From: a virus
Taxonomy: Duplodnaviria; Heunggongvirae; Uroviricota; Caudoviricetes
Length of the DNA stretch: 24,777 nt
Direction: 5' to 3' (one strand)
Virus record (IMG/VR): IMGVR_UViG_2778261216_000008
Span: 1 to 24,777 of that record
Below the pieces are notes generated by a model, which worked only from the letters and a program-made list of their open reading frames with translations, did no database searches and had not been told where the DNA came from. A program made the translations under genes and the position numbers. Positions 263-15,511 of this stretch are shown piece by piece. Position 1 is the stretch's first letter. Each line of letters opens with the position of its first letter.

Positions 263-306
263 AGCTGTGTGGCGAAGTAACCACTCTTAACACGATACAA
301 TAATTT

Positions 307-335: not shown

Positions 336-368
336 CAGCTTAATCCTATGTATTTATGGAAAAATAAG

Positions 369-1944: not shown

Positions 1945-1953
1945 TTAGCACTC

Positions 1954-2310: not shown

Positions 2311-2312
2311 AA

Positions 2313-3308
2313 TCAGGACAGCACACCAATCGCCAGCGCGCGATCGATAAAACGAAATATCAGCTCCAGTTGGGAACCATACTTCTCTTCAAATGCCACG
2401 GTATCCGCATGCAGTTCGTCATGGTGTTTTCTGCACAAAGGCAACACAAAAAGGTCATGCGCTTTTGTACCCATTCCACCCTGACCATGGCCAATCAGGT
2501 GATGCGGATCGTCGGCTGGCTTACCACAACATGCACACGGCTGCGTCTTAACCCAGCGCGTGTACTTTTCATTAACCCAGCGACGACGTTTGGGGCGTAA
2601 CATAAAAGACTCCGGCGACTCCGGATCCACTTTCAGCGCCAGCACCTTTTTCGCTTTATCCCGGATGATGCTGGTGGCGAGAACCGAAGGCACAAGGTCA
2701 CTTTCCCGGGTAACAGACGGCACAACAGTCTTCGGTAATCTCAGTGCCTTACGGGCTGCACTTTCCGGTAAGGCATCTGCCAGGTCATTACGAACCAGCC
2801 ACCAGCACAGTTCCGGCATTGTCACAACGTGACTGTCATCAAAACCGAGATCCCGGCGCACAACAGACAACACCCAGCGGGCACAGTTATCCGTTGCCAT
2901 TGCTTCCAGCCGTTCCGTGAACTGATCGCGCAGCTGGTTATCGCAGTGCCAGCACAGACGGATTGCGCCCGGCGCGTGCCGCATTGTGGTCATGTTCTCG
3001 CTGTGCCATCCGGAATGAGGCCACTGACAGCCCTTTTCACGAAGTAACCAGCTTTCAAGACATTCCACGCCACCAGCACGACGAATAACTGCCTCATTGC
3101 GGAACACGGCCCGAACGGCAGGATCATCCGCTAACGGTTGTGATGCCGCCGGAACGGCACCACTGGCAAAAGATGAATAGCGTTCCGGCTCAGGCTCCAG
3201 CAGGACACGTCCCTGCATAAACAGGGGCATCAGCTCTGAACCTGGTCTGAACAGTACGATCCCCATTCGCGGGGCAATTTCAGGAGTCAACAATGCTCTC
3301 ACGGTCAC
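2313..3308 (-). CDS. prophage protein with C-terminal Cys/His-rich HNH-like motif (possibly DUF968 family)
   Basis: 331 aa; C-terminus CACCGKPADDPHHLIGHGQGGMGTKAHDLFVLPLCRKHHDELH; GTG start; family assignment from memory only. Confidence 0.55.
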   Translation of the reverse strand: MTVRALLTPEIAPRMGIVLFRPGSELMPLFMQGRVLLEPEPERYSSFASGAVPAASQPLADDPAVRAVFRNEAVIRRAGGVECLESWLLREKGCQWPHSGWHSENMTTMRHAPGAIRLCWHCDNQLRDQFTERLEAMATDNCARWVLSVVRRDLGFDDSHVVTMPELCWWLVRNDLADALPESAARKALRLPKTVVPSVTRESDLVPSVLATSIIRDKAKKVLALKVDPESPESFMLRPKRRRWVNEKYTRWVKTQPCACCGKPADDPHHLIGHGQGGMGTKAHDLFVLPLCRKHHDELHADTVAFEEKYGSQLELIFRFIDRALAIGVLS

Positions 3309-3353
3309 CTCAGCGAACGATATTGCATGAACACAGGAGAAAAAATTCAGCCA

Positions 3354-3611
3354 TCACGCAGTAAACTCCTTCACCAGAGTTTCAAACTGGCTTACCTTGC
3401 CTTCCAGTTCCGCCACGCAATCCACCAGCTCATCCACCGCCTTTTGTGTGCGGTGTTTTGCCTGCAGCAGATCACGAAGCGCCGGAGTAAGCTGCTTGCG
3501 GAGCGTATCCTTTGCCACGCTCATTTTTTCCATCTGTTCAGCACAACGAAGCATCTCCTGCGCCTGGCGACGAAGTTGTTCCGGTGAAACAGTGGCTGTT
3601 CTGTTGTTCAA
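3354..3611 (-). CDS. hypothetical small protein (85 aa, coiled-coil-like)
   Basis: ATG overlaps the DnaB-like stop (ATGA); no recognisable domain. Confidence 0.5.
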   Translation of the reverse strand: MNNRTATVSPEQLRRQAQEMLRCAEQMEKMSVAKDTLRKQLTPALRDLLQAKHRTQKAVDELVDCVAELEGKVSQFETLVKEFTA

Positions 3612-5008
3612 AATAAACGCTCCGTTTTACTACCCGACATGCGGTTATTGCTGTATCTGCGCGGAGTGCCCGGCGTCATGGGAGTGGAAAGAACCCGGGC
3701 ACTCTCCTGGTCCACAGGCAGAAAATGCCCGTTATGAAAACGCCGGTAAATGGTACCCAGCGTGCCATTACGCTGTTTCGTGATGTTGATTTCAGCTATG
3801 CCTCTCGCCTGTGTCTCCGGGTTGTACACCTCATCCCTGTAAAGCATCAGAATGATGTCTGCATCCGCCTCTATTTCCCCTGAGTTTTTCAGGTCCGAGT
3901 TCATGGGGCGTTTATTGGGTCTGGATTCCACACCGCGGGAGAGCTGGCTCAGAGCAATCAGCGGAAAACCGCCGGATTTTGCCAGGCTTTTTAGTCCCTT
4001 TGAGATTTCCCCCACAGCAAGGTCGTGACGCCCCGTGCTGCGGGTTTTAATCAGGCCGAGGTAATCGACCACCACCAGCGCCGTTTCCGGGTGTTTCATC
4101 CGGTGGTGCCTCGTGGTTGCACATATCTCATCAATGGTCAGGTTTGCCTGGTCCACCATCCAGATATTACGCCCCGTCATTCGTCCCACGCCCTGTGAGA
4201 AACGCGCCCAGTCTTCGTCTTCAAAACGGGCAACAGACTTAAGACGGGATACCGGCATTCCCCCGGCAGCAGACACCATACGTTCACCAATCTGAATGTT
4301 CGCCATCTCCATGGTGAACAGAAGCACGCCATGCCCCTGCTCAGTCACCTTGTCGATGATATCCAGCGCAAGTTCGGTTTTCCCCATCGAAGGACGAGCC
4401 GCAATGAATACCAGGTCGCCTGGCTCCATACCGCCCGTTTTTGCGTCCAGTTCATCAATACCGGTCATCAACGCCCTGGATTTCTCCAGTCCCTGATTGC
4501 GGCATTCAACACGGTCGACCACTTCCGGAAGGACATCATCAATGTGAACCGGCTGAATGACGCCCTTTCCGGTCGACAGTGAGGCCATCATGTTCTGCGC
4601 ATCCTTCAGGGCATCCTCGGCTGCTTCACAGGTATACGCATCACGTAAATTCTGTAATGCTTCAGTCAGTGTTTTTTCTGCATCGCGCAGTGCGGCATTA
4701 CGCCGCAACGCTGCGACATAGTGCTCCAGTGAAGACTTCACCCAGGTTTTGCGTCCGGTGTCGGTAATCACCGGGGCAAGTTCCGGCATCTCATTGCACA
4801 GCAGTACGGGGTCAATGACGCCGGATACACGGGCCTGTCTGCAAATTCCCGCGTAAATATCCCGGTACTGTCGTGCAGAAAAAACGTCCGCCGACAATGT
4901 GGCCAGAATATCCATCACTTCCGGATCAGCCCCACGCAGAAAAAACGCACCGATGACAGCTCCTTCCAGGTCATAATTACGCCACGCCGGATTTGTCGGG
5001 TTTGTCAT
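3608..5008 (-). CDS. DnaB-like replicative DNA helicase
   Basis: Walker A ARPSMGKTELALDI plus DnaB-like C-terminal domain; start MTNPTNPAW overlaps the DnaC-like stop (ATGA). Confidence 0.85.
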   Translation of the reverse strand: MTNPTNPAWRNYDLEGAVIGAFFLRGADPEVMDILATLSADVFSARQYRDIYAGICRQARVSGVIDPVLLCNEMPELAPVITDTGRKTWVKSSLEHYVAALRRNAALRDAEKTLTEALQNLRDAYTCEAAEDALKDAQNMMASLSTGKGVIQPVHIDDVLPEVVDRVECRNQGLEKSRALMTGIDELDAKTGGMEPGDLVFIAARPSMGKTELALDIIDKVTEQGHGVLLFTMEMANIQIGERMVSAAGGMPVSRLKSVARFEDEDWARFSQGVGRMTGRNIWMVDQANLTIDEICATTRHHRMKHPETALVVVDYLGLIKTRSTGRHDLAVGEISKGLKSLAKSGGFPLIALSQLSRGVESRPNKRPMNSDLKNSGEIEADADIILMLYRDEVYNPETQARGIAEINITKQRNGTLGTIYRRFHNGHFLPVDQESARVLSTPMTPGTPRRYSNNRMSGSKTERLF

Positions 5009-5895
5009 GCTGCCACACCTCTGATATGCGCACGGTAGCTTTCCCAACCAAACACCAGGCAGTTACGCCCACCATCAGTAACGCGATCCACAATCCGTTC
5101 ACCAATGGATTCCTTAAGCTGTTCAAACGTCAGGTTGCTGATCAAAATTGTCGGTAAAATGCTTTCGTAACGCGCATTTATGATTTCCTGCAGGATGGTT
5201 ATCTCCGCAGGCGTACCGAACTGCACACCAACCTCATCGATGATAAGCAGATCCAGCGATGCAAAATGATTAATCACTTCATCGTCAGTGCGCTCAGAGT
5301 TGTGGCGCCAGGTATTTTTCACCGCACGGGTAAGCCGCATTACATCCGTGATTTCTATGGTTGCCTGGTGGTGGCGAATAATATTTTTTGCCATTGATAC
5401 AGCCAGGTGATTTTTACCGGTACCACAATTGCCAATCATGACCATGCTGGTGCCTGCAGCGAGACATTTCTTCCAGGAAGCGGCATAGCGCTGACAGGCT
5501 TCAAGGTTTTTCTGTGCGTCAGTATTCACCGCCTGATAATTCTCAAACTCACAGTCCTGGAACCGGCGGGCAATACCGGCCTGATCGAGTAATTCACGAA
5601 CCTTCAGGGCGCGTAATTCGTCATACACGCGGTCCAGCTCCTCACTGAGGCAGGACAGGCAACCGGACACCCGTTTGACAGCTTTCCCCCTTACATCCGG
5701 GCCCGTCAGCACATAGCGCGTGTATTTTCCGTGTTTCCCGCAGGACACCGTCTCAGTGCTTTGCACCCAATGCTCACAGCGCCACGGACGCTTTCCGCCA
5801 CGGACAAATGCCAGCTCCTCTTCCAGGTCTGCCTTGCGGTTAAGTAACTGCGCTTTGTCGTGTTGCATGTGTTGTTTGTTCAGGAAATTAGTCAT
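5005..5895 (-). CDS. DnaC-like (IstB-type AAA+) helicase loader
   Basis: Walker A GNCGTGKNHLA, Walker B LLIIDEVG; start MTNFLNKQ after RBS GGGAGGG. Confidence 0.85.
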   Translation of the reverse strand: MTNFLNKQHMQHDKAQLLNRKADLEEELAFVRGGKRPWRCEHWVQSTETVSCGKHGKYTRYVLTGPDVRGKAVKRVSGCLSCLSEELDRVYDELRALKVRELLDQAGIARRFQDCEFENYQAVNTDAQKNLEACQRYAASWKKCLAAGTSMVMIGNCGTGKNHLAVSMAKNIIRHHQATIEITDVMRLTRAVKNTWRHNSERTDDEVINHFASLDLLIIDEVGVQFGTPAEITILQEIINARYESILPTILISNLTFEQLKESIGERIVDRVTDGGRNCLVFGWESYRAHIRGVAA

Positions 5896-5914
5896 TTTCA
5901 CCCTCCCCACAAAA

Positions 5915-6826
5915 TCACCAGTTGAAGTTCGTTGAGCCGTAGTCCTGTTCACTGAATCCCGAGATCGGGAGGCTTTTGCCCCGCCCACCTCCGGGGGCTG
6001 CTGGCTGTTGCCAGGATTCCTCGAAATGACGATCGGGTCCAAAGAACGTCGACGCCTGCTTCACGAACTGGGTACCGGTATTTCCAGAGACACGCACCCA
6101 GGCGGCATAGCGTTTCACACCGTTGAGCATGGTTTCGGGTGTCACACCTTCCCTGATTCGGGCTTTCCAGGCTTTGAAGGCTGCTGACTTGGAATTACCA
6201 CCAGCACGTTTGGGATATTCCTGCCAGGCCTGTTCAAATTCCGGTGAATATTCCTGTCTGGCAGAACGCGCTGGTGCAGACGCGTCAGCGGATGCGCCAA
6301 TATCTTGCGGTTCATGTTTTGAATTTACTGGTGGTTCATGTTTTAAACCTTGTGGATCTGGGGTCAGATTCTGAAGGGTCAAACGCGTATTTTTGCCAGA
6401 ATCTGAAGGGTCAAACACACCTGAACATACAGATTCTGACGGTTCAGATTTTGAAGGTTCAGAATCTGAAGGGTCACGTAATCCTGAAAGTCTGCGCTGC
6501 TGTTTCAGTTCTGCAACCTTATCCCGCTCTGTTCTGGCAAGCAGCTCAAGCCGATCAGCATTCAGATGATAAAGATTGGACGTATTACGGTTACCTTTGC
6601 GGCGTGACTGACGCGTCAGCCAGCCATCAGCCTCCAGTTCGGAGATTGCCGTTCTGACTGTACTTTCTCCCAACCCAAGCTGTCGGCATATGGTTTCAAC
6701 ACCTGGGTAGCACACCCCGTCATCATTCGAATAATCCGCCAAGCGCGCCATAATCATCAGTTTTGCACCTTTGATGCCATATGCTGCACATGCATCCCAG
6801 ACATTACCTAGGATTTTGCTACTCAT
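5915..6826 (-). CDS. replication initiator (lambda O-like) with N-terminal HTH and internal iterons
   Basis: N-terminal HTH-like segment; iteron array inside the coding sequence (Ser/Asp/Pro repeat in the protein); directly upstream of loader and helicase. Confidence 0.7.
   Translation of the reverse strand: MSSKILGNVWDACAAYGIKGAKLMIMARLADYSNDDGVCYPGVETICRQLGLGESTVRTAISELEADGWLTRQSRRKGNRNTSNLYHLNADRLELLARTERDKVAELKQQRRLSGLRDPSDSEPSKSEPSESVCSGVFDPSDSGKNTRLTLQNLTPDPQGLKHEPPVNSKHEPQDIGASADASAPARSARQEYSPEFEQAWQEYPKRAGGNSKSAAFKAWKARIREGVTPETMLNGVKRYAAWVRVSGNTGTQFVKQASTFFGPDRHFEESWQQPAAPGGGRGKSLPISGFSEQDYGSTNFNW
6309..6477. repeat. origin-type iteron array inside the initiator gene
   Basis: GGTTCATGTTTT x2 (6309-6320, 6333-6344); CAGAWTCTGAAGGGTCA x3 (6365-6384, 6397-6416, 6460-6477) plus degenerate copies at 6430-6461. 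Confidence 0.65.
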
Positions 6827-7047
6827 ACGGCACCTCCCAGACGCTTAAACATTTTTCCGGACTGAAACGCCACCAGCGGATAACTCAGGGTATGAGTACG
6901 TCCCTGAACCTGGCAGACAACCTTCTGGCTTTCTGTATTGACCAGGCAAACCCGCAGAACGTGTCCATTGCTGGTGGTGAACCACTGCCCCACACGGGGG
7001 CAATGGTTGTATCGGTGATACAGGAAATTAACGATGTGGCGGATCAT
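6823..7047 (-). CDS. hypothetical small protein (74 aa)
   Basis: ATGA start/stop overlaps on both sides within the operon; no recognisable domain. Confidence 0.45.
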   Translation of the reverse strand: MIRHIVNFLYHRYNHCPRVGQWFTTSNGHVLRVCLVNTESQKVVCQVQGRTHTLSYPLVAFQSGKMFKRLGGAV

Positions 7048-7238
7048 GGACGCACCTCCGCCGTAGTTACGTATTTAACCGGGCTACCTTTCATTGAGAT
7101 GGTTTCACACATCTCTGCCGCTTTCAGTTCTGCCGTTTTTCTGGATTTATAGCGACGGTGCCAGACAGATACATCCGTGCGAACTGATACATCGTTTCTG
7201 TATTCAGTTGTGGAAATAATAATTTCGTAACTAATCAT
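7044..7238 (-). CDS. hypothetical small protein (64 aa)
   Basis: ATG 7238 after RBS GGAGG, overlapping the upstream stop; track ORF 7044..7253 trimmed to this start. Confidence 0.45.
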   Translation of the reverse strand: MISYEIIISTTEYRNDVSVRTDVSVWHRRYKSRKTAELKAAEMCETISMKGSPVKYVTTAEVRP

Positions 7239-7597
7239 GGACGCGCCTCCCACTGATTACGGCGGAAAGCGGTAAGATTCAGGCTGTTCCCTGCCTCATG
7301 GAATGCTTCAATGCAGCTCTCGTAGTACCGCATTGTGCGTAGACTTAACCCAAGCTGAAGCATCATCAGGCCATCAAAGGTGATGTAATAACCACGCAGG
7401 GAGTCACCATAGATGTGATAAGTACCCGGTATGAAATTGCGGGTAAAAAATTCGCGCGAGCAGTTCAGATACTCGATTTTGTCGACGATGTTCTGGTGCA
7501 TGCGCTTGAAATGGCAGGCAACATGCAGGGAGAAAATAACGGCCTTGCCGTTGACGACTTCGATTTTCAGGTATGGGGAAGTTGGGTCTGTAGCCAT
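7235..7597 (-). CDS. Rha-family (Phage_pRha-like) protein, diverged paralogue 2
   Basis: 120 aa from ATG 7597 after conserved GAGGCTGCCATC; GKAVIFSLHVACHFKRMHQNIVDKIEYL and YYITFDGLMMLQLGL parallel the Rha core of the upstream paralogue. Confidence 0.55.
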   Translation of the reverse strand: MATDPTSPYLKIEVVNGKAVIFSLHVACHFKRMHQNIVDKIEYLNCSREFFTRNFIPGTYHIYGDSLRGYYITFDGLMMLQLGLSLRTMRYYESCIEAFHEAGNSLNLTAFRRNQWEARP

Positions 7598-7890
7598 GAT
7601 GGCAGCCTCCGTATGCAATGGATAACTTCCACCACCGGAAACGCCAATTTCGCTGGTGGTGAACTGAGCAGGGTTGGCGTAACCGGCGCATACGGAAACC
7701 GGCGCACCTTTCGGTGCCCCCACCCAGCCCACCATAATTTGGGTATAGCTGAGTTGTAGCAACAAAAAAGACGCTAACGCGCCAATTGTCGCCGTATGCA
7801 ATTCTAGGACGCCAATCCCGGCACCCGTTTTATAAGGTGCCTGAACAGTGTAACGTCCCGGAATGGCAGAATCAATATTCAGGTAGCGGA
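7598..7890 (-). promoter_or_regulatory. structured leader 2 upstream of Rha paralogue 2 (candidate cis-regulatory RNA/attenuator)
   Basis: Shares a 42-nt near-identical 5' block, CCCAAATTATGGTGGG and the RBS block with leader 1; hairpin GGGGCACC-GAAA-GGTGCGCC (7701-7720); GC stem + T6 at about 7764-7783. Confidence 0.5.
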
Positions 7891-8442
7891 TCATAGACGC
7901 ACCTCCTTGTCAGAACCATTCAGCCTGGAATCAACAAGTGCAGCACCAAAAACAGCATCACCTACACGGTCGTACAGTTTGCTGGCCAGCGGAGATTCAA
8001 CAGCCTTAAGCATTGGATAAAGCTGGCTTGTCCAGATTTGATGGATTTCACGCAAATGCAGGTATACGCCTCTGGCGTTTCGTGCGACAGCTGACATATC
8101 AGACGCATCGGCACCTGATAAACTCTTCTCCATCTGGTTAAAGGCATTGATGTATGCCTCTTTGAACCTGGCTGCACGTTTACCAGTGAAGCCCATGGCA
8201 AGAAACGCAAAACCGTCGCGGGTGATTTGATAGCAAGGTAGTTTGCGGCCTGTGCAATCAGTGTAATCACTCACCGAAAAATTGCGGGCAGTGAGTGATG
8301 CGGAACATTCAAGCGTGCGGATCTTTTTCAGTACATCGTCATGACGTTTGGAGAAGAAGTTGGCAACAGCCAGGGATGAAGTAACAGCCTGACCATCAAC
8401 GATGGCAATTTCAGGTTGAGTGAGGGTTGGGATCGTAGCCAT
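7891..8442 (-). CDS. Rha-family (Phage_pRha) regulatory protein, paralogue 1
   Basis: 183 aa from ATG 8442 after RBS AAGAGG; GQAVTSSLAVANFFSKRHDDVLKKIRTLE...YQITRDGFAFLAMGFTGKRAARFKEAYINAFNQME matches the Rha domain pattern. Confidence 0.7.
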   Translation of the reverse strand: MATIPTLTQPEIAIVDGQAVTSSLAVANFFSKRHDDVLKKIRTLECSASLTARNFSVSDYTDCTGRKLPCYQITRDGFAFLAMGFTGKRAARFKEAYINAFNQMEKSLSGADASDMSAVARNARGVYLHLREIHQIWTSQLYPMLKAVESPLASKLYDRVGDAVFGAALVDSRLNGSDKEVRL

Positions 8443-8738
8443 GATGGCAGCCTCTTTGGTGATTTTTAATAACTCACCACCAAGGCTTTCCACGACCTTA
8501 TTGGTGGTGAGACGTACAGGGGTGGAAATACCGGTCACCAAAGAACCCGGCCCAACCGAAGTTGGCCCTGCACGCCCCACCATAATTTGGGCGTAATGCT
8601 GCTCATGACACAAAAAAACCGCAAGAGCGCGGCTGTGCGCTTTGGTGAATTCCGGGTTTCCACGCCCGGCACCCGCTTTATAAGGTGCCTGAACAGTGTA
8701 ACGTCCCGAAATTGAGGAATCAATATTTTGGAGAACAA
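8443..8738 (-). promoter_or_regulatory. structured leader 1 upstream of Rha paralogue 1 (candidate cis-regulatory RNA/attenuator)
   Basis: Hairpin GGCACC-N10-GGTGCC; hairpin GGGCCAAC-UUCG-GUUGGGCC (8549-8568); 11-bp stem CTCACCACCAA/TTGGTGGTGAG (8473-8511); GC stem + T7 (8612-8633). Confidence 0.5.
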
Positions 8739-9563
8739 TCATGCAGCACCCGCCAGTTCTTTATCGTGGGTGAATTCGCCATTCCAGTTTCTCTTCATGG
8801 GTAATGCACCTCTAAGATACTGGCGATAAATCCAGACCGCCCCTTTCTGGAGAAGAACTGGTGTATACGAATAAAACCCTTCTTCATAACCTGAATCGAT
8901 ATAGTGGTGACGTTCGGTCAGATACAGATCTCGGGCATATGCCTTTACACGCCATGCGGGGCTTCGCGATTCAGGACGCTCGTCATAAAGCCAGTTGTGA
9001 GCCTCCAGAAATGCTGTGATACGCTGAACATTTACTCCATTAAGTTGCTTGCAGAACTGAACCGGTGTCATGCCAGGCTGGAATAAATTTTCCAGATGTT
9101 CGATGTATTGGGCCTGACGATGAACGTAACTAATTGCTCTGTTTTTAGCCTCATATTCATCCGCCCAGGCACGGGCAGCAGCAGCCGGATCGCTAAAATC
9201 TGGTAGGGATGTCATTGTGGTAAGACTGTAATTCCCCGTTTTACGAATTGACGGAATTACCTCCGATGTAATCCACCGTTTAAAACGTCTTGCCTGTTTT
9301 TTTCGACTTTTGATAATCAGCGCATAGAGCCCGGATTCATTGACCAGCAAAGGCTTACGTCCCGAACCTAAGTAATCCTTATATTCGGTTTTATCTTCAT
9401 CATCGATGGACTGAAGGGAGATAGCAGTATTTGTCAGCCCCAGCGCGTTACATATATCCACGGCAAAAAACCATGGTGTTGAATCAATGACCACACTACG
9501 AACTGATGACAACAATTCACCAGTGCTTGATTTAAAATCGAAAACTTTGATATTGTTTTTCAC
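8739..9563 (-). CDS. Bro-N domain antirepressor-like protein
   Basis: GTG 9563 after RBS GGAGA; N-terminus KVFDFKSSTGELLSSVRSVVIDSTPWFFAVDICNALGL is Bro-N-like; track ORF trimmed at the upstream stop. Confidence 0.65.
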   Translation of the reverse strand: MKNNIKVFDFKSSTGELLSSVRSVVIDSTPWFFAVDICNALGLTNTAISLQSIDDEDKTEYKDYLGSGRKPLLVNESGLYALIIKSRKKQARRFKRWITSEVIPSIRKTGNYSLTTMTSLPDFSDPAAAARAWADEYEAKNRAISYVHRQAQYIEHLENLFQPGMTPVQFCKQLNGVNVQRITAFLEAHNWLYDERPESRSPAWRVKAYARDLYLTERHHYIDSGYEEGFYSYTPVLLQKGAVWIYRQYLRGALPMKRNWNGEFTHDKELAGAA

Positions 9564-9615
9564 GTAATATCTCCGACGATAAACCCGACTGGCCGGTTTT
9601 CTCTGCCGGCCTTTC

Positions 9616-10323
9616 TTATTTCTGCCAACCAATAACCTGAAATACCCCCATTTTCGGGTAATACCAGCAAGTCCCTCGCGGTTCTGCTTCCTCCATAACC
9701 CGATAAAAAGCAGCCATAAACGGTTCCACAGCAACAATTGCGCGACGAGACAACAATCCATCCGGCCTCATGAACTCATGGGGGTCGGTAGGGATCTGAT
9801 ATGCGTTCACCAGATTGCGGCATTTCGCATCTGACATACCCGTTTTCGCCGCCAGCTGACGATAGCCTGCATAACCATCGCGTATGGCGCCTCTTTTGAT
9901 TTGTTCGACAGTTTCAGTAACGTGGGTGACTTTCTCTTCCACCTGCTCAAGACGTCTTTGTTGGCGAACAGCTTCAAGCGCCATTGCAGCAACCATTTCG
10001 ATCTGGCTCATTGGTTTGCGGATTTGTTCTTCCAGTTCGCGCCAGCGGTCTACCAGACGGGCGGTGAATTCAGGGCAAAGCTGTGCGACAACAATGATGC
10101 TGTCGCGTTTGCCTCGTTCACCTTCGAATACATACGCGCTAGAAAATCGGCGAGGGCCAAGTGATTGTTTATTCTCAATTTCCACAGACTGTGGAAATTG
10201 GATGATTCCCTTTTTAGCCAGTGTTTCAATAGTTCTCTTAACACTATCTGGTCTGCTTCCCACCAGCTCAGCTATCTCAATACTGGTCATGGATGCTTTA
10301 TCGGTAAAAATTGTTGTATTCAC
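9616..10323 (-). CDS. Rha-family N-terminal domain regulatory protein (in the cII position)
   Basis: 235 aa; TSIEIAELVGSRPDSVKRTIETLAKKGII...SIIVVAQLCPEFTARLVDRWRELE is Rha-like; ATG overlaps the cro stop (ATGA). Confidence 0.6.
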   Translation of the reverse strand: MNTTIFTDKASMTSIEIAELVGSRPDSVKRTIETLAKKGIIQFPQSVEIENKQSLGPRRFSSAYVFEGERGKRDSIIVVAQLCPEFTARLVDRWRELEEQIRKPMSQIEMVAAMALEAVRQQRRLEQVEEKVTHVTETVEQIKRGAIRDGYAGYRQLAAKTGMSDAKCRNLVNAYQIPTDPHEFMRPDGLLSRRAIVAVEPFMAAFYRVMEEAEPRGTCWYYPKMGVFQVIGWQK

Positions 10324-10583
10324 TGTTTATCTCCTTCGCACACTCCATCTTCTGTGTGCGCTAAACTTGGGTGTGGGAAAAGCTCCGGTAGATCAGGACG
10401 AAATTCATACGCCTGGACTTTCCCATCGACCGCCTTAACCAGAGACGGAACAAATTCAGGAGAAATTTTTTTCTTCCCATTCAGCCAGTCGCAAATTGTT
10501 GACTGCGCGCGACCACAACGCCTAGCCAGAGCAATCTGGCTTCCCGCAATATCTACAGCCTTGGCTATACCTTCATTTTTCAT
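10320..10583 (-). CDS. cro: Cro-like HTH repressor
   Basis: 87 aa from ATG 10583 after RBS GGAGG; HTH QIALARRCGRAQSTICDWLNGKK; divergent from the CI-like gene. Confidence 0.7.
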   Translation of the reverse strand: MKNEGIAKAVDIAGSQIALARRCGRAQSTICDWLNGKKKISPEFVPSLVKAVDGKVQAYEFRPDLPELFPHPSLAHTEDGVCEGDKQ

Positions 10584-10706
10584 ATCGACCTCCAACCTGA
10601 TTTCATTCACTATAGCGATTGATTAAAGCGATTGCAATGTACGGAAAAGCGGTTTGTGTATATATCGCTAAGGCGATACACTAAAAGGGCAGAAAAAGGA
10701 GGACTT
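10584..10706. promoter_or_regulatory. divergent immunity-switch region (pR-like cro promoter, operator-like dyads, cI upstream region)
   Basis: Minus strand TTGCAA-17 bp-TATAGT (plus 10609-10637); palindrome TATCGC-TAAG-GCGATA at 10663-10678; AGCGATTG direct repeat; motif TATAGCGATTGA at 10611-10622. Confidence 0.55.
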
Positions 10707-11411
10707 ATGAGCTTTTCAGACAGGCTACAGTTAGCTATGACTATCCGCGGATACTCGCAGGGAAAACTGGCCAGAGAGGTTGGCATGGCTCAATCGAGCG
10801 TAAATAAACTGGTTAATGGTGCCACAGGCTCCAGGAAAGTTGTGGAGATAGCCAATACCCTGAACGTGCGCCCCGAGTGGCTATCGTACGGTGTTGGTCC
10901 TATGACCCCAGAAGAAAGCACATCCTGCAATCCGACACCACAGGAATCATATTCCCCGCTGGAAAATGATAAGGATATTTTTCGTGTGGAAGTCCTGGAT
11001 ATCGCTGCCAGCGCGGGACCAGGAACATTCCTTGTTTCAGATTTTGCAGAAACGGTCCATGCTATAGAATTTTCACATGACGCCGCAAGACGTCTGTTCT
11101 GTAGCAGGCCAGCAAATATCATAAAGATGATAACAGTTGATGGCGACAGCATGGCTCCTACTCTGTGTGCAGGAGATCAGGTGTTTGTCGACGTATCCGT
11201 CAGAAATTTTGAAACTGACGGTATCTATATTTTTATTTTTGGGCACACCTTCCATATCAAACGCCTGCAAATGCAAGGGATGCAACTTGCTGTTATATCA
11301 GACAATCCGGCCTACAAGGAATGGTTTATAAGTGAATCAGCTGAAGAACATCTATTCATAATGGGGAAAGTTCTCATTCATCAGTCAATCCAGTATAACA
11401 GGGTCGGATAA
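10707..11411 (+). CDS. cI: CI-like repressor (HTH_XRE + S24 LexA-type peptidase domain)
   Basis: 234 aa after RBS AAGGAGG; HTH GYSQGKLAREVGMAQSSVNKLVNG; S24 motifs VDGDSMAPTL and FHIKRL; candidate Ala-Gly cleavage site in SAGPG. Confidence 0.85.
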   Translation: MSFSDRLQLAMTIRGYSQGKLAREVGMAQSSVNKLVNGATGSRKVVEIANTLNVRPEWLSYGVGPMTPEESTSCNPTPQESYSPLENDKDIFRVEVLDIAASAGPGTFLVSDFAETVHAIEFSHDAARRLFCSRPANIIKMITVDGDSMAPTLCAGDQVFVDVSVRNFETDGIYIFIFGHTFHIKRLQMQGMQLAVISDNPAYKEWFISESAEEHLFIMGKVLIHQSIQYNRVG

Positions 11412-11520
11412 GTCAACATCACCGGCAGCTGTATTGCGCAGCTGCTCTACTTTCCTGTATCTCAACTCCCTACGTATCGTCTCATTTCTCTCATAATCTG
11501 TTCTTTGCTGCCCAAAATGC

Positions 11521-11568
11521 ATAGCTATAGCGATTGACATAACCAAACGCTTTAGCTATTGTAAAATT
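11521..11568 (+). promoter_or_regulatory. candidate pL-like early-left promoter with operator dyad
   Basis: TTGACA at 11534-11539 with TATTGT/TAAAAT downstream; dyad ATAGCTATAGCG (11521-11532) / CGCTTTAGCTAT (11548-11559); shares TATAGCGATTGA with the cro-cI region. Confidence 0.4.
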
Positions 11569-11587
11569 AAAACAACAGGAGGCTCAT

Positions 11588-12259
11588 ATGAAGCATGCAG
11601 TTAAGGTGATGGATGAAATTGCAGCACAAATACAAGAAAGCGGCTCGCTGCTTGGAATGATCTATTCCTACATGTCAGAAAACGGAGCAGAAAGTGAGAG
11701 GGTTTATAATGCAATCAGATGCCTGATGCGTTCCCTGCAAAAAACAGAAGAAACTGCATCAATTTTTGCAGAAAAACTATGTGAGGCAAAAGCTATGGTT
11801 TCGCATGGTCACTTTTTTGGAAAAATCCGTGCCCAACGTGAAGCCTGCGGTTTGACGACCACCGAACTAGCCAGACTACTCGATCTTGACGAAGAGATTA
11901 TTCTGCAATGGGAGAGTGGAGAGTTCGAGCCAACCATCAGCATGCTTATCCCCCTGGCAAACGTCCTGGGATGCGATCCGCTTTCTCTGCTGAGTGAAAA
12001 CAATACCGCAGTACCTGTGCGCGTAAATGCTCCTGAAGCCCATATGGAAAGTATTGGCACACGCATCAAAAGCGCACGTAAAAAACTGGGATTAACCGAA
12101 TCTGATCTTGCCCGCATGATTAATACCTATAGCGACCCCATAAATGACTGGGAATGCGGCATCCATGAAGTTCCTGCTGATCAGATAGTACCACTGGCCA
12201 GTGCTCTTAATTGTGACCTGATGTGGTTGTTAACAGGCAAATCAGAAGCAAAGGAGTAA
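11588..12259 (+). CDS. protein with two tandem XRE-type HTH domains (223 aa), first gene of the early-left operon
   Basis: Strong RBS AGGAGG; HTH 1 GLTTTELARLLDLDEEIILQWESGEFEPT, HTH 2 GLTESDLARMINTYSDPINDWECG. Confidence 0.7.
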   Translation: MKHAVKVMDEIAAQIQESGSLLGMIYSYMSENGAESERVYNAIRCLMRSLQKTEETASIFAEKLCEAKAMVSHGHFFGKIRAQREACGLTTTELARLLDLDEEIILQWESGEFEPTISMLIPLANVLGCDPLSLLSENNTAVPVRVNAPEAHMESIGTRIKSARKKLGLTESDLARMINTYSDPINDWECGIHEVPADQIVPLASALNCDLMWLLTGKSEAKE

Positions 12260-12264
12260 CAACA

Positions 12265-12465
12265 ATGACTGGCAATATCCATGATAAGTATGAAGGCTTA
12301 TGCCTGGCACCGGATTCCTTTGCAAACAATATCCATAATTTATTATGCGCAGTTGTTGTATTACAAATGTCAGACAACGACGCAATAAAAAGAACAGGTG
12401 ATGAAGTTCTTGAATTTGCACGTTGCTATGCTGAAGCAGCTGCTGAAAAAGAACTAACCAGTTAA
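12265..12465 (+). CDS. hypothetical small protein (66 aa)
   Basis: ATG 12265 after RBS AAGGAG; track ORF 12223..12465 trimmed. Confidence 0.4.
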   Translation: MTGNIHDKYEGLCLAPDSFANNIHNLLCAVVVLQMSDNDAIKRTGDEVLEFARCYAEAAAEKELTS

Positions 12466-12546
12466 ATAGAACAAGTCATCTCCGGATAATATATTACGGC
12501 TTAATCGCCGGGGATTATCACACCCTTAATCCACAGGAGGTTTTAT

Positions 12547-12660
12547 ATGACCTTTATAAAACATAAGGCATCACACAAAACAGCCTGCCTTATTGCACAG
12601 CACGGGAAAAATTACATGCATATTGCCTGCTTGTTTCTGCGTAAAGCATATGGGAGATAA
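12547..12660 (+). CDS. possible small basic protein (37 aa), not in the ORF track
   Basis: ATG 12547 after RBS AGGAGG; MTFIKHKASHKTACLIAQHGKNYMHIACLFLRKAYGR; stop 12658-12660. Confidence 0.3.
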   Translation: MTFIKHKASHKTACLIAQHGKNYMHIACLFLRKAYGR

Positions 12661-12662
12661 TA

Positions 12663-12845
12663 ATGCATCAGAAAACAGCAGAACACGAGCAAACCAGAGT
12701 ATTGCTGACCATCAAAAACGGGAAAGTAATATTAATTCGTCATGTTCATGACGATGAACTTGTAGGAAGTCTTTCAACATTCCTGTTTATTGCAGAAAAG
12801 GCAGGATATGACGTTATTGCACCAGCAGATGAAGATGAGGAGTAA
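12663..12845 (+). CDS. hypothetical small acidic protein (60 aa)
   Basis: ATG after GGGAGA; no domain recognised. Confidence 0.4.
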   Translation: MHQKTAEHEQTRVLLTIKNGKVILIRHVHDDELVGSLSTFLFIAEKAGYDVIAPADEDEE

Positions 12846-12850
12846 ATATC

Positions 12851-13423
12851 ATGCAATACGCTGAATTCCAGGCTGAAGCAACAGCCACAGGTATACGAAC
12901 TGGCAGTATGACTATTGATTATCACGACGCAATCCGCCGTCTGGATGCAGGTGAATTCGATCATCCTAATGTGAAAGGTTTGCAAATCCTTCAATGCCTC
13001 GCACAAGCCGACAATGCAGGATTACTGGGTAAACTCCCTGTTGAGATGAAGGTAGCCCAGTGGCGCTGGTTGTACGTGACGACATTCATCAACGAAGAAG
13101 AAAACAAGAATGGCACTATTGATATCCCAAACGAACACGGAACAACAGATCGCGCCGTAATATATAACGGGAAGCATGGGGTTATGACGATATATCCCGG
13201 CCCCATTCGGTTTGCCTTACAGCAGTATATTGAATGGAATTTAATTCAAAAATACGGCAAGGCAGAAGGAATGGGTAGAGCGCTGTTTCTTTATCAGAAA
13301 ATGCTCATTACATACCCAGATAAAGGTTTCATTGTTTCAGACATGGGGCGAGAAGGGCTTGAACTCCTTCTGGATGAAATGATTAACGACCTGAATACTC
13401 ATGGTATGCCAGAAGGCCAGTGA
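12851..13423 (+). CDS. hypothetical protein (190 aa)
   Basis: ATG after RBS GAGGAG; no motif recognised; followed by the terminator-like hairpin at 13439-13463. Confidence 0.6.
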   Translation: MQYAEFQAEATATGIRTGSMTIDYHDAIRRLDAGEFDHPNVKGLQILQCLAQADNAGLLGKLPVEMKVAQWRWLYVTTFINEEENKNGTIDIPNEHGTTDRAVIYNGKHGVMTIYPGPIRFALQQYIEWNLIQKYGKAEGMGRALFLYQKMLITYPDKGFIVSDMGREGLELLLDEMINDLNTHGMPEGQ

Positions 13424-13438
13424 CACATTAAATATTAA

Positions 13439-13463
13439 GAAGAATATAATTCTTCCGTTTTTT
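13439..13463 (+). terminator. candidate rho-independent terminator
   Basis: GAAGAAT-ata-ATTCTTC followed by CG and T6; AT-rich stem, so modest. Confidence 0.4.
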
Positions 13464-13476
13464 ACTAACCATTTAT

Positions 13477-13584
13477 ATGAAAAACAACCGTGAATTAAGC
13501 AGAGTAAAACTGCTTTTAATCCTTGCCACAGTACTGACAATAACAGAAATCATTATTCTCTTTATTGCGCTGTCTGTCAGTTAA
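13477..13584 (+). CDS. possible small hydrophobic peptide (35 aa, one TM segment), not in the ORF track
   Basis: MKNNRELSRVKLLLILATVLTITEIIILFIALSVS; weak RBS; immediately upstream of a second small membrane protein and the SPFH gene. Confidence 0.3.
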   Translation: MKNNRELSRVKLLLILATVLTITEIIILFIALSVS

Positions 13585-13607
13585 AAATATCGGGATACCA
13601 CATACCA

Positions 13608-13796
13608 ATGAGACTGTATTTCACAATAGTAATTTTACTGGCAATTATCGCATGCATTTACGGATTACTCGTTCCGTTCCTTATATCCATGAAGGATACG
13701 ATAGCAGTTACTTCTGGCTTTGCACTGGCGTTTCTGACCCCGCCCTGCATTTATGCCATTTACAAGGGTCTTTCTTTCACTAAGGATAAAAAATGA
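13608..13796 (+). CDS. small membrane protein (62 aa, 2 predicted TM segments)
   Basis: Hydrophobic YFTIVILLAIIACIYGLLVPFLI and SGFALAFLTPPCIYAIY; stop overlaps the SPFH ATG (ATGA); weak RBS. Confidence 0.5.
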   Translation: MRLYFTIVILLAIIACIYGLLVPFLISMKDTIAVTSGFALAFLTPPCIYAIYKGLSFTKDKK

Positions 13797-14620
13797 AAAA
13801 AATTATTTTTGCTTTAGCCATTGTTCTGCCGATCATTGGCCTTGTCGGCTGCGATCGCGTTGAACCCGGTAATGTTGGCATCAAAGTAAATAAACTGGGC
13901 GACGATAAAGGCGTCGGTGAGGTGGTCGGTGTTGGTCGCTACTGGACTGGCTGGAATACTGAAGTTTACATCTTCCCAACCTTCAAACAAATGAAGACCT
14001 ACGATGAGCCGTTCAGCTTCCAGATGAGTGACGGCACAACCATCGGCTATCACATCGGTGTTGCCTACAAAGTTGATCCATCCAAAGTTACCACGGTGTT
14101 TCAGACCTACCGCAAAGGCGTGGATGACATTACCGCCACTGACCTGCGCCAGAAGATCGCCGACGCACTCAATCGACTGGCCAGCAAAATGACCACCGAC
14201 AAATTTATCGACGGCGGCAAGTCTGAACTACTGGATGCCGCACTTAAAGACATTCAGGAAGAGATGACCCCCATCGGCGTTCAGGTAATGAGCCTCTCTT
14301 ATGTAGGTAAACCGGAATACCCGCCAACCGTTATCGACAGCATTAACGCCAAAGTCACGGCAAACCAGAAAACCCTGCAGCGCGAACAGGAAGTCAAGCA
14401 ACGTGAAGCGGAGGCCAACATGCTGCGTGCAGAAGCTGCCGGACAGGCTGATGCCATTCGAACAAAAGCCCTGGCAGAAGCCGATGCCATTCGTTTACGC
14501 GGCGAAGCTCTGCGCCAGAACCCTGGCGTCATGGAGCTGGAAGCCATCAACAAGTGGAACGGTACACTGCCGCAATACATGACCAGTGGTGCCAATACAC
14601 CATTTATCCAGATTAAATAA
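13793..14620 (+). CDS. SPFH/Band-7 (prohibitin-like) domain lipoprotein
   Basis: Signal peptide with lipobox LVGC; SPFH-type core; Ala/Glu/Arg-rich coiled-coil tail (QREAEANMLRAEAAGQADAIRTKALAEADAIRLRGEA). Confidence 0.8.
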   Translation: MKKIIFALAIVLPIIGLVGCDRVEPGNVGIKVNKLGDDKGVGEVVGVGRYWTGWNTEVYIFPTFKQMKTYDEPFSFQMSDGTTIGYHIGVAYKVDPSKVTTVFQTYRKGVDDITATDLRQKIADALNRLASKMTTDKFIDGGKSELLDAALKDIQEEMTPIGVQVMSLSYVGKPEYPPTVIDSINAKVTANQKTLQREQEVKQREAEANMLRAEAAGQADAIRTKALAEADAIRLRGEALRQNPGVMELEAINKWNGTLPQYMTSGANTPFIQIK

Positions 14621-14648
14621 CTTACACGCCCGGCAAACCGCCGGGTTA

Positions 14649-15032
14649 ATGGAAAATCAGATGAACAACCAGAATACTCAACCGCAAATAATGAACTATG
14701 ACCCGAATCTGACGTCGTGCGGACGCATGGCAAAACAAACCGTTCGATTAACTTTCGGACTATGGGAATACCGCGAAACATTCGAAGTTACTGTCGGCGG
14801 CAATCTGACCGGACTGGATGTTATCAATTGCGCTATTGAAAGCCTGTACGCAACGCTGCCTTATGAAGAAGTCCTGGATGAGCGCACAGGGAAAACGGAT
14901 ATCATGGCCACCATTAATATTGGCGAACTGATATGCCAGGATGAAGACCTGTCCGGGGAACTCTGGCTTGCCGGGATGCTTATCTCAGCAGAAATTATCA
15001 GTATTGAACCCGCTACAAACATACGGCTCTGA
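14649..15032 (+). CDS. hypothetical protein (about 127 aa; alternative start 14661)
   Basis: Track ORF 14586..15032 trimmed to the first ATG after the SPFH stop; no domain recognised. Confidence 0.5.
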   Translation: MENQMNNQNTQPQIMNYDPNLTSCGRMAKQTVRLTFGLWEYRETFEVTVGGNLTGLDVINCAIESLYATLPYEEVLDERTGKTDIMATINIGELICQDEDLSGELWLAGMLISAEIISIEPATNIRL

Positions 15033-15063
15033 AGTTCTCACTATTCAGAGAGCAGGAGAAAAA

Positions 15064-15180
15064 ATGTTCGCTCTGATTAATCAGGGACAACTGTATACCG
15101 ACAGTGCCGGTTACCCGGTAAAAATTGTTCGCTGCATAAACAACACCGTGTTGTACAGAAGATGTGAAGCGAATGTTTGA
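15064..15180 (+). CDS. possible small protein (38 aa)
   Basis: ATG 15064 after RBS AGGAGA within track ORF 14941..15180; MFALINQGQLYTDSAGYPVKIVRCINNTVLYRRCEANV. Confidence 0.25.
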   Translation: MFALINQGQLYTDSAGYPVKIVRCINNTVLYRRCEANV

Positions 15181-15223
15181 AGTGTGGTGCCACTGCCGTG
15201 GATGAAAGTTTTATGAGGTTGGC

Positions 15224-15478
15224 ATGCAGACAATCATCTATCAGATAACCCCCAGCAAATGGTGTACGGAGAGAGTCCTCATTGCATCAACAGGGCTAAA
15301 GCCTGGCACCATCGAGCGAGCCAGAAGAAAGTCATGGATGCAGGGAAAAGAATACCGCCATTACGCTGTAGAAGGTGATCCGGGGCATTACAGTGAATGC
15401 CTGTACAACATCGAAGAAATTATGCGATGGATCGAAAACCAGAAACAACCAGGTGCCAAAAATGCAAGTTCCGGTTAA
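15224..15478 (+). CDS. xis: excisionase-like protein
   Basis: 84 aa directly upstream of int; KWCTERVLIASTGLKPGTIERARRKSWMQGKEYRH resembles the excisionase-like family of P22/Stx-type phages. Confidence 0.65.
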   Translation: MQTIIYQITPSKWCTERVLIASTGLKPGTIERARRKSWMQGKEYRHYAVEGDPGHYSECLYNIEEIMRWIENQKQPGAKNASSG

Positions 15479-15511
15479 CCTGTTAATGCTCCTGGACGTC
15501 TGGGAGGTTTT

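Follow-up and report, generated by a model that had tools for sequence, protein, structure and literature searches.

The window, a 24,777-nucleotide stretch of a Stx prophage of pathogenic E. coli, carries two overlapping genes for a small membrane hairpin protein and an exported SPFH-domain lipoprotein. These are best explained as a mobile two-gene phage unit closed by a hairpin, and it is very probable that the two products form a real cassette and function together at the membrane. Our preferred reading, to which we assign a probability of roughly 45%, is that the coupled proteins build an inner-membrane cage that may exclude the DNA of superinfecting phages or guard the membrane. The cassette, as read from the open reading frames, consists of:

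13608 to 13796, + strand: partner gene, 62 amino acids, two-transmembrane (TM) hairpin protein (ORF, PHROG 1130, pN/pS 0.23, synteny)
13793 to 14620, + strand: SPFH/Band-7 lipoprotein gene, 275 amino acids (Pfam Band_7, PHROG 200, RefSeq "SPFH domain-containing protein")

The TGA stop of the partner gene shares letters with the ATG of the SPFH gene in an ATGA overlap at 13793-13796, and an AAGGA Shine-Dalgarno sequence lies 6 nt upstream, which bears out the translational coupling proposed in the first-pass annotation. PHROG profiles identify the adjacent genes as members of PHROG 1130 and PHROG 200 (E = 7.3e-23 and 7.6e-113), the families of phage N4 gp19 and gp20; gene order and overlap also agree with those families. 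Among close relatives, selection on both genes is purifying, with pN/pS of 0.03 for the SPFH gene and 0.23 for its partner. The two PHROG entries are catalogue names ("membrane protein" and "lipoprotein"), and the literature searched gives no function, complex, or topology for them. In full-text searches we came across no phage SPFH protein that had been studied functionally; papers up to 2026 only speculate, and describe the phage role of SPFH proteins as unclear.

The SPFH protein has three recognizable parts:

13793 to 13855, + strand: type II signal peptide with lipobox L17-V18-G19-C20 and Asp21 at +2 (direct reading of the sequence)
13856 to 14416, + strand: SPFH domain, residues 22-208 (Pfam envelope)
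14324 to 14518, + strand: long Glu/Ala-rich helix, residues 178-242 (DSSP on the AlphaFold2 model)

Its N terminus reads MKKIIFALAIVLPIIGLVGC followed by DR, with a basic n-region, a hydrophobic core, and the lipobox L-V-G-C ending in Cys20. This signal peptide, MKK-IIFALAIVLPIIG-LVGC20, follows the lipobox rule [LVI][ASTVI][GAS]C within the first ~25 residues, and lipidation is predicted accordingly. The lipobox Cys is nearly invariant among relatives, with a single Tyr exception (P0145 in A1). Residues 22-208 match Pfam Band_7 (PF01145) with E = 1.2e-30 and 107.3 bits (cut-off, 23.6), spanning profile positions 2-176 of 176, and the SPFH-domain lipoprotein with an LVGC lipobox described earlier is therefore upheld. 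The domain begins two residues past the lipidated Cys, and thus should rest directly on the membrane surface.

Under the E. coli "+2 rule," Asp at +2 keeps a lipoprotein in the inner membrane. Asp occupies this position in 139 of 140 close relatives, and by the rule the SPFH protein is predicted to stay at the inner membrane. Relatives from non-enteric hosts have Ser or Thr at +2 with the partner gene still present; the rule is valid for enterics, and the predicted inner-membrane location applies to those hosts. The idea that a retention residue at +2 (D/E/Y/W) tracks the presence of the partner held in the first eight phages and was dropped when a survey of 259 loci contradicted it.

We then consider the fold. 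The AlphaFold2 model shows an SPFH fold with a long helix of the kind that builds rings and cages in HflK/C, prohibitin, stomatin, erlin, and flotillin. The "coiled-coil tail" of the first-pass annotation appears in this prediction as the single long helix 178-242. Residues 64-245 are mostly modeled with pLDDT above 80, apart from a low segment at 101-115; the model was built on a shallow alignment (26 sequences at >= 75% identity), and residues 13-63 and 249-275 are unreliable, leaving the N-terminal third at low confidence and the N-terminal 40 residues of the SPFH domain poorly modeled. Foldseek matched the model with probability 1.0 to HflK, HflK/C, prohibitin, erlin, stomatin (the core in 3bk6 shares the fold), flotillin, and the major vault protein, with HflK (7vhq_E) at the top, and the coiled-coil regions of HflK and prohibitin are matched both by sequence (PDB) and by fold. 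After the helix comes a conserved C-terminal segment in which W255, G257, P260, P270, and F271 are invariant columns in the alignment of relatives; we take the helix and this segment to be the parts that form the wall and cap in known SPFH cages. By analogy with the family, the protein may assemble as a cage oligomer, and it is probably a periplasm-facing oligomer of the inner membrane.

E. coli HflK/HflC (PDB 7vhq, 7wi3, and 9cz2) is the best structural and NCBIfam match, sharing the SPFH fold and long coiled-coil helix. Its SPFH domain lies at the periplasmic face of the inner membrane, where the lipobox and Asp at +2 would also place that of the phage protein. In contrast to HflK/HflC, a TM-anchored hetero-pair whose partner is FtsH, the phage protein is predicted to be lipid-anchored, is encoded by one gene, and has a 62-amino-acid hairpin as its partner. 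The usual speculation in papers on such proteins is an HflK/C mimic, and we considered it as a rival: the phage cage would capture or compete for FtsH at the periplasmic face, stabilizing FtsH-degraded phage proteins (CII/CIII-type regulators, Xis, or membrane proteins) and thereby biasing lysogeny or induction. The shared membrane side and the top-ranking HflK and HflC matches fit this rival, as does a position in the pL operon (described below), which is where lambda encodes its FtsH inhibitor cIII. The matches themselves, however, fall below threshold for the HflC equivalog TIGR01932 (23.0 bits against 134.4) and the HflK equivalog TIGR01933 (19.6 bits against 159.4), as also for the flotillin FloT equivalog NF058507 (16.5 bits against 700), and prohibitin, erlin, and stomatin match about equally well. 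The cassette is also frequent in strictly virulent phages, which make no lysogeny decision, and no FtsH-related gene accompanies it. SPFH homologs occur in haloarchaeal viruses as well, whose hosts, to our knowledge, lack FtsH. We therefore regard FtsH capture as unlikely.

The partner has two hydrophobic segments and a Lys-rich C-terminal tail. The topology is predicted to be N-in/C-in, so that the conserved turn between the segments, P23-x-L-I-S-M-K-D-T, would face the periplasm; this turn is the best-conserved portion of the protein. Homologs fall into 85 clusters at 50% identity among 1.84e9 proteins, all of 36-91 amino acids, and 0 are fused to another domain. A Pfam search at E <= 0.01 gave no family for it, and it has no NCBIfam, PADLOC, or PDB sequence match. 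One natural fusion (P0037) arises from a frameshift that joins the C terminus of the partner to the SPFH signal peptide, and agrees with N-in/C-in topology of the partner and a periplasmic location of the SPFH domain; the frameshift falls within a poly-A tract, and an error of assembly may have produced it. Two other SPFH proteins (L251 and L252) were considered as Rosetta-stone fusions for their two N-terminal TM segments, and were rejected because these have no similarity to the partner HMM.

A small membrane-protein gene just upstream of an SPFH gene is also the arrangement of the stomatin/flotillin-NfeD operons (QmcA-YbbJ, YqiK-YqiJ, and P. horikoshii PH1511-PH1510). The phage partner differs from the products of those genes in lacking the NfeD (PF01957) OB-fold domain: it has no Pfam match and is only two TM segments long. 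Moreover, the cellular SPFH proteins of these operons face the cytoplasm, whereas the phage protein is predicted to be exported and lipidated.

The sequences flanking the two genes contain three further features:

13439 to 13463, + strand: A/T-rich 7-bp hairpin (stem 13439-13455) with a T6 run, -4.9 kcal/mol
13477 to 13584, + strand: 35-amino-acid hydrophobic ORF, a doubtful gene outside the conserved cassette (ORF list)
14628 to 14646, + strand: G+C-rich stem-loop GCCCGGC-AAACC-GCCGGGT without a T-run, -14.1 kcal/mol, z = -2.7

The first of these had been taken as a terminator-like element ahead of the 35-amino-acid ORF. It folds at chance level (z = -0.54; 55 of 200 shuffles fold equally well), its stem is mismatched in relatives (L015 variant), and the terminator scan did not report it; we discarded it as an upstream terminator. 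The 35-amino-acid ORF does exist as described. It lacks a Shine-Dalgarno sequence, has a pN/pS of about 0.58, and is limited to a single sublineage (52 of about 140 close loci), as 22 distinct DNA variants that are all open. Sister variants without the ORF have a strong Shine-Dalgarno sequence on the partner gene instead. The peptide was never annotated in RefSeq and was not found in a 15-billion-protein collection. This lineage-specific spread and weak coding evidence rule it out as a third conserved component kept with the SPFH gene.

The downstream stem-loop starts 8 nt past the SPFH stop. Of 143 close loci, 123 have its CCCGG...CCGGG stem, with varying loops and downstream genes, and a majority of the distant clusters also have a strong hairpin past the SPFH stop, several of them canonical terminators. 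The stem-loop thus marks a conserved 3' boundary of the cassette, and may act as a weak terminator or mRNA 3' stabilizer. Between 12 and 16 kb of the window, Rfam gave no RNA family match.

The pairing of the two genes extends well beyond close relatives. In the survey of 259 loci, 32 of the 37 diverged SPFH clusters show a two-TM ORF directly upstream of SPFH, mostly with a 1- to 8-nt overlap, counting upstream proteins either homologous or analogous to the 62-amino-acid partner. These clusters come from lambdoid, P1-like, N4-like, V5-like, jumbo, and metagenomic phages, and the loop motif of their partners is P-x-L-(I/V)-S-A-x-(D/S)-T. The expected synteny is thus kept for the partner. Gene order and overlap are identical in the N4-like phage Moo19 (gp30/gp31, which its record labels N4 gp19/gp20-like), the jumbo phage 7t3, and a P1-like phage; Hena1 has the same order with one gene in between, and the partner also precedes the SPFH gene in Seunavirus, Stenotrophomonas, and Burkholderia phages. 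A first scan of viral contigs returned only 97-100% identical copies, and this diversity was reached through distant queries.

The SPFH protein is 61-91% identical across jumbo, N4-like, V5-like, and P1-like phages and non-mobilizable plasmids of about 100-110 kb, including Yersinia pestis plasmids. Sequence comparison thus indicates that the cassette moves between phage types and is transferred horizontally. Among complete E. coli genomes, about 10% carry it, Stx2 prophages included. GTDB species representatives hold only 15 loci, too few for statistics and consistent with a mobile-element gene. The earlier description as a prophage module holds for the window; the cassette is not prophage-specific, however, being common in strictly virulent phages and abundant in virulent phages of environmental bacteria.

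This very wide spread over phage lifestyles and hosts, with autonomous transfer, would suit a counter-defense or membrane-repair function, in which abortive-infection effectors or infection stress would not depolarize the inner membrane prematurely because the cage stiffens or patches it. SPFH proteins are general scaffolds of membrane microdomains, and the early-gene neighborhoods of the cassette also agree with such a function. Against this, no known anti-defense gene is linked to the cassette, and from sequence alone the expectations are the same as for exclusion; we give counter-defense a low probability. Membership of the cassette itself in a known anti-phage defense system was considered and dropped, as the module matched no defense model: PADLOC-DB v2.0.0 has no family at E <= 0.1 for the 35-amino-acid, 62-amino-acid, SPFH, DUF5406, or upstream 190-amino-acid proteins.

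Within the window, a predicted early-left promoter precedes the cassette by about 2 kb:

11526 to 11561, + strand: predicted pL promoter (TTGACA, 17 nt, TATTGT), overlapped by operator-like repeats

Copies of the operator-like repeat TA(T/A)AGCGATTG start at 10611, 10624, and 11526, an inverted one is at 11544, and the repeats are found both at this promoter and between the cro-like and cI-like genes. The promoter is directed towards the cassette, xis, and int, and every gene from 11588 to int is on the + strand. We infer from this arrangement that it is pL and that it is repressed by CI. The cassette had been placed next to xis-int; it is near these genes (xis at 15224-15478, int at 15512-16798), but DUF5406 (14652-15032) and a DUF4222 remnant intervene. 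No credible sigma-70 site is found upstream of the cassette, and a promoter of its own was dropped as a candidate because the sole + strand prediction falls within the 62-amino-acid gene. With respect to a moron layout (an autonomous prophage insert of promoter, gene, and terminator), the window combines the missing upstream sigma-70 site with a chance-level upstream hairpin and a conserved downstream hairpin without a T-run; in many other phages the gene is followed by true terminators.

Other phages place the cassette in similar surroundings. Among 127 neighboring genes, the top 25 PHROG/Pfam families are replication, recombination, and regulatory ones, and none of these 25 is a holin, endolysin, spanin, or structural family in the proteobacterial phages surveyed. 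Based on these neighbors and on its place in the early-left operon, the cassette looks early-expressed. This position in an early operon and in early or replication surroundings, as opposed to lysis modules, makes lysis timing and lysogenic conversion less probable relative to an early-acting envelope function.

In the case of lysis timing, the 62-amino-acid protein would be holin-like, and the SPFH cage would corral it or the phage holin, delaying or timing permeabilization as in lysis inhibition. The partner, small and with two TM segments and a basic tail, does resemble class II holins in architecture, and the homolog in RB43 lies immediately downstream of rI and rI.-1. A further parallel comes from Staphylococcus Kayvirus MbpS/MbpV, where a distant SPFH homolog (about 23% identity) has a small membrane-protein gene directly ahead of it; MbpS and the small TM protein lie between endolysin and transglycosylase genes, and this location in a lysis module fits a lysis role better than exclusion. 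The Kayvirus partner differs from ours in having one TM segment and a long charged tail, is non-homologous, and belongs to a phage of a Gram-positive host. The lysis families missing from the commonest neighbors in proteobacterial phages argue against lysis control, as does the position of the cassette, which the Q antiterminator gene separates from the expected late (e.g., lysis) gene region. In addition, a periplasmic turn as the most conserved part of the protein is uncommon in holins. We consider a lysis-timing role improbable.

Lysogenic conversion would have the SPFH protein act on the animal host as a surface or vesicle lipoprotein, either a virulence factor or a TLR2 agonist; such a role has been claimed for PM0222 of Pasteurella multocida. 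PM0222 is HflK/C-like, has a mass of 25-35 kDa, and belongs to a lambda-like prophage; it was detected in outer-membrane vesicles, and deleting it reduced virulence. The likeness to PM0222 is one of description, and the window is likewise from a prophage of a pathogen. Asp at +2, however, predicts retention at the inner membrane, the cassette is plentiful in virulent phages of environmental bacteria, and in the window its early operon is putatively repressed and no promoter specific to the cassette was detected. This reading is highly improbable.

Under the preferred cage-and-exclusion reading, the pair would be transcribed from pL as a delayed-early message following induction or infection. 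The partner would insert N-in/C-in with its P-x-L-I-S-x-x-D-T turn in the periplasm, and the SPFH protein would be lipidated and held in the outer leaflet of the inner membrane, on the same side as HflK/C. There it could multimerize into a cage, either enclosing the partner or nucleated by it, and so fence off a patch of inner membrane. The cassette may in this way shield the inner membrane of an infected or induced cell, blocking DNA entry of a second phage at that point.

Superinfection exclusion is the weakest step of this explanation and is offered tentatively, with general membrane stabilization a close second. As a hypothesis only, exclusion by the cassette can be likened to the action of small phage-made envelope proteins that halt a second phage at the envelope, such as TP-J34 Ltp, T5 Llp, phi80/HK022 Cor, T4 Imm/Sp, P22 SieA, and HK97 gp15, some of which are encoded in or beside the lysogeny module. 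The cassette proteins have no sequence or fold kinship to any of these, none of which has an SPFH domain.

A variant that we judge decidedly unlikely is a gated permeability switch. Here the 62-amino-acid protein would be a latent holin-like pore subunit, kept inactive or concentrated inside the periplasmic SPFH cage until puncture by a second phage or a timing cue frees it. If true, the outcome could be lysis inhibition, exclusion, or abortive collapse; such a switch would be a new antiholin/exclusion device common to lytic and temperate phages, and would give an SPFH cage its first defined job in the conflict between viruses.

SPFH proteins (stomatin, prohibitin, and flotillin, as well as HflK/C) are universal membrane scaffolds most of which have ill-defined clients. 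An exported version, predicted to be lipid-anchored, is present in phages of many families, and in phages of Proteobacteria its gene is nearly always paired with that for one specific 60-amino-acid hairpin protein, followed by a hairpin or terminator. The hairpin protein is an obvious candidate client, and the cassette is a minimal, portable two-gene system small enough for expression, purification, and imaging. Should it serve in exclusion or as a membrane guard, the systems of phage-phage conflict would gain a widespread class, and SPFH biology a tractable model.

Two minor observations concern neighbors in individual phages. In Moo19, an exclusion gene of the P22 gp17 type is situated two genes upstream of the pair, and the RB43 homolog adjoins rI; both hint weakly at a link to superinfection or lysis inhibition.

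We show that the SPFH lipoprotein and a two-TM hairpin protein form a real, co-conserved and translationally coupled pair that is mobile among phages and occurs in early-gene contexts. The region contains the following features:

13477-13584, + strand: 35-aa hydrophobic ORF (doubtful as a gene)
13608-13796, + strand: 62-aa ORF with two hydrophobic segments (partner gene)
13793-14620, + strand: 275-aa ORF (SPFH gene), its ATG overlapping the 62-aa stop codon (ATGA) and preceded at 6 nt by a ribosome-binding site, AAGGA
14628-14646, 8 nt past the SPFH stop codon: G+C-rich stem-loop (-14.1 kcal/mol, z = -2.7)

The 275-aa protein matched the Pfam Band_7/SPFH domain over residues 22-208 (E = 1.2e-30). 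Its N terminus, MKKIIFALAIVLPIIGLVGC-DR, is a type II signal peptide with the lipobox LVGC and Asp at +2, and by the E. coli +2 rule the lipoprotein would be retained in the inner membrane. An AlphaFold2 model had a confident SPFH core and one long helix (residues 178-242); owing to a shallow alignment, the initial 60 and final 25 residues were modelled poorly. The domain match, lipobox and helix bear out the lipid-anchored SPFH protein proposed in the first-pass annotation. Foldseek matched the model to HflK, HflK/C, prohibitin, erlin, stomatin and flotillin, all with probability 1.0 at 13-20% identity, while a PDB sequence search gave weak matches only, to prohibitin-2 and HflK. As a member of this family, the protein may form a cage. 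Papers mentioning phage SPFH proteins speculate on an HflK/C-like effect on lysogeny or call the role unclear. The HflK/C matches bear on whether the cassette modulates the protease FtsH; unlike HflK, HflC and FloT, the phage protein fails their equivalog models, falling below cut-off by wide margins, and we regard this function as unlikely.

The 62-aa partner belongs to PHROG 1130 (E = 7e-23) and the SPFH protein to PHROG 200 (E = 8e-113); since both gene families are already catalogued, the cassette is not a new family. The partner has neither an NfeD domain, which sets the pair apart from NfeD-type SPFH operons, nor any other Pfam domain. In the N4-like Shigella phage Moo19, the 66-aa gp30 (N4 gp19-like) has the same architecture and turn motif and overlaps the SPFH gene gp31 (annotated N4 gp20-like). 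Similar partners with the turn motif overlap the SPFH gene in jumbo phage 7t3, Cronobacter phage EspYZU14 and Stenotrophomonas phage DLP_6, and also in a P1-like phage and a Burkholderia phage, where the gene is unannotated; in Erwinia phage Hena1 the partner precedes the SPFH gene in the same order, with one intervening gene.

To survey this pairing, 259 loci were collected with diverged SPFH queries, their SPFH proteins were clustered at 80% identity (37 clusters), and the flanks were searched with an HMM built from partners. The HMM matched in 25 clusters, and in 7 more an obvious two-TM ORF that it missed abuts the SPFH start. A two-TM ORF thus adjoins the SPFH start in 32/37 clusters, mostly overlapping by 1-8 nt. 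Close relatives gave pN/pS values of 0.03 (SPFH gene) and 0.23 (partner). The test named in the first-pass annotation was conservation of the small ORFs with the SPFH gene, and given this cross-phage pairing and these ratios, the 62-aa gene passes it. The ATGA overlap and AAGGA site likewise uphold the proposed translational coupling. Forty-five partners of <60% mutual identity share TM1, P-x-L-(I/V)-S-A-x-(D/S)-T-x-x-V-x-x-G, TM2 and a basic tail. By the positive-inside rule the partner would be N-in/C-in. A putative SPFH cage may contact its conserved turn, which would be periplasmic. Searching 1.84 billion representative proteins with a profile yielded 85 partner clusters, all of 36-91 aa, none fused to another domain.

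Several loci show variants of the junction. In P0037, a 347-aa SPFH protein from a 94-kb contig (compare locus L002, 2270-2510), the two-TM partner is naturally joined in frame to the SPFH lipoprotein. This fusion, which seems to stem from a single-base change in the junctional poly-A run, may be genuine or an assembly error; its topology fits a partner that is N-in/C-in and an SPFH domain in the periplasm. In loci L091 (Shigella flexneri SFBU1023) and L092 (E. coli ECMA0423), ~767 bp, IS1-sized, lies between the two genes (~2233-3001), which suggests an insertion uncoupling them. In Burkholderia phage vB_E175 (L088, 1300-1500), as in ~40 viral contigs related to it, a two-TM frame without annotation ends by overlapping the SPFH start (GTGA), and upstream of it lie a GGAG site and an intrinsic terminator. 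No ATG, GTG or TTG start lies ahead of its first TM segment, and it may start at a non-canonical codon such as ATA.

The 35-aa ORF, grouped with the pair in the first-pass annotation, exists as a reading frame and is not conserved with the SPFH gene. It was present in 52 of ~140 close loci, all of one partner sublineage, with a pN/pS of 0.58 and no ribosome-binding site, and we rejected it as part of the conserved unit. It lacks RefSeq annotation and was not found in a 15-billion-protein collection. Sister variants have a short spacer in its place, and there the partner gene has a strong GGAGG site. The hairpin before it (13439-13463), described earlier as terminator-like, is A/T-rich, at chance level (-4.9 kcal/mol, z = -0.54) and imperfect in relatives, which gives that description no support. 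The partner finding is real and somewhat better than first estimated; the 35-aa ORF and upstream hairpin are worse.

At the 3' end, the CCCGG...CCGGG stem is kept in 123 of 143 close loci, while loops and downstream genes vary. Most distant clusters also have a strong hairpin 3' of the SPFH gene, several being canonical terminators with a T-run. Because this hairpin recurs despite differing downstream genes, the pair behaves as a self-contained cassette closing a transcription unit.

SPFH homologues occur in 794 phage records, including virulent N4-like, Vi01-like, V5-like, FelixO1-like, T4-like, jumbo, PaP3-like, Kayvirus, Enterococcus, crAss-like and haloarchaeal viruses. The more distant examples, from phages of Gram-positive hosts, crAss-like phages and archaeal viruses, also have a small TM-protein gene, not homologous to the partner, that abuts the SPFH gene, upstream or downstream, so pairing with a small membrane protein seems general. 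The lambdoid copy is 61-91% identical to those of jumbo, N4-like, V5-like and P1-like phages, a pattern that points to recent horizontal exchange among phages of unrelated types. Homologues were also found in 536/5426 complete E. coli genomes and 669 plasmid records, mostly non-mobilizable and largely of 90-120 kb. The size range, a 90.9% identity to a P1 phage record and the presence of Yersinia pestis plasmids suggest putative P1-like and SSU5/pMT1-like phage-plasmids.

We scanned 127 flanking genes from diverse phages against two family libraries. The commonest families were transcription regulators, exonucleases, recombinases, ssDNA-binding proteins, helicase, primase, polymerase and ribonucleotide reductase, which fits early or middle expression. 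Lysis control finds a hint in RB43, where the SPFH homologue (ORF139c, L264 10590-12243) immediately follows the lysis-inhibition gene rI and rI.-1 in the same orientation, and in the exceptional Kayvirus homologue within the lysis module; holin, endolysin, spanin and virion families were all missing from the top 25 in both libraries, and this role is improbable. RB43 ORF139c is TM-anchored, without a lipobox, and a 32-aa single-TM ORF follows. In Moo19 a P22 gp17-type exclusion gene lies two genes upstream of the cassette, a hint that the cassette may stop the DNA of a superinfecting phage at the inner membrane, the function we rank first, with a probability of roughly 30%. PADLOC gave no match. 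Membrane protection or counter-defence is not likely. A Pasteurella multocida prophage SPFH protein, a putative member of this family, was reported in one study to occur in vesicles and to add to virulence; a host-directed virulence role here would be very surprising. Its conserved architecture makes the cassette a reasonable experimental target.

Positions 1-17239 are 100% identical to Stx2 prophages in yecE of E. coli, e.g., strain 89-3156, and O111:H- 11128 has the same arrangement, with 99.9% identity across the 1.3-kb cassette region. The setting is as follows:

On the - strand, gene order: Q, replication genes, Rha/BRO/ash genes, cro-like gene
+ strand, gene order: cI-like, double-HTH, three small unknowns, 62-aa, SPFH, DUF5406, DUF4222 remnant, xis, int
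11533-11561, rightward: predicted promoter TTGACA-17-TATTGT, overlapped by TA(T/A)AGCGATTG repeats

Two copies of this 11-nt repeat separate the cro-like and cI-like genes, and it recurs with an inverted copy just past the cI-like gene, at the promoter. From sequence, these elements would be OL/pL (lambda-type early-left operator/promoter); that would place the cassette in the early-left operon, ~2 kb from its start, so that it would be repressed in a lysogen and switched on by induction or infection. A promoter scan detected none of the cassette's own.

Between cassette and xis, the DUF4222 gene (14941-15180) survives as a truncated remnant that relatives' annotations mark as a pseudogene; the 84-aa xis ORF (15224-15478) is intact and is annotated as frameshifted in strain 89-3156. 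A yecE (DUF72) remnant (16764-17255) lies 3' of int, followed to 24777 by a different mobile element with a large serine recombinase (17308-18831) and, on the - strand, Dit-like tail and tape-measure proteins; two prophages therefore appear to be neighbours at yecE. None of the complete E. coli genomes in the collection contains the entire window unbroken. Two overlapping + strand ORFs of 357 and 179 aa (327-1932), opposite in strand to the flanking Q antiterminator gene, had no match in Pfam or PADLOC; their position in strain 89-3156 is between Q and a small hypothetical gene preceding a DNA methyltransferase, and they could be an uncharacterised insert. On the - strand, two tandem C4 antisense RNA and isrK sRNA modules (7652-7840 and 8500-8688), all above Rfam gathering scores, fall in ORFs matching Rha-family and BRO-N genes of strain 89-3156 and look like a duplicated P1/P7-type antirepressor control unit.
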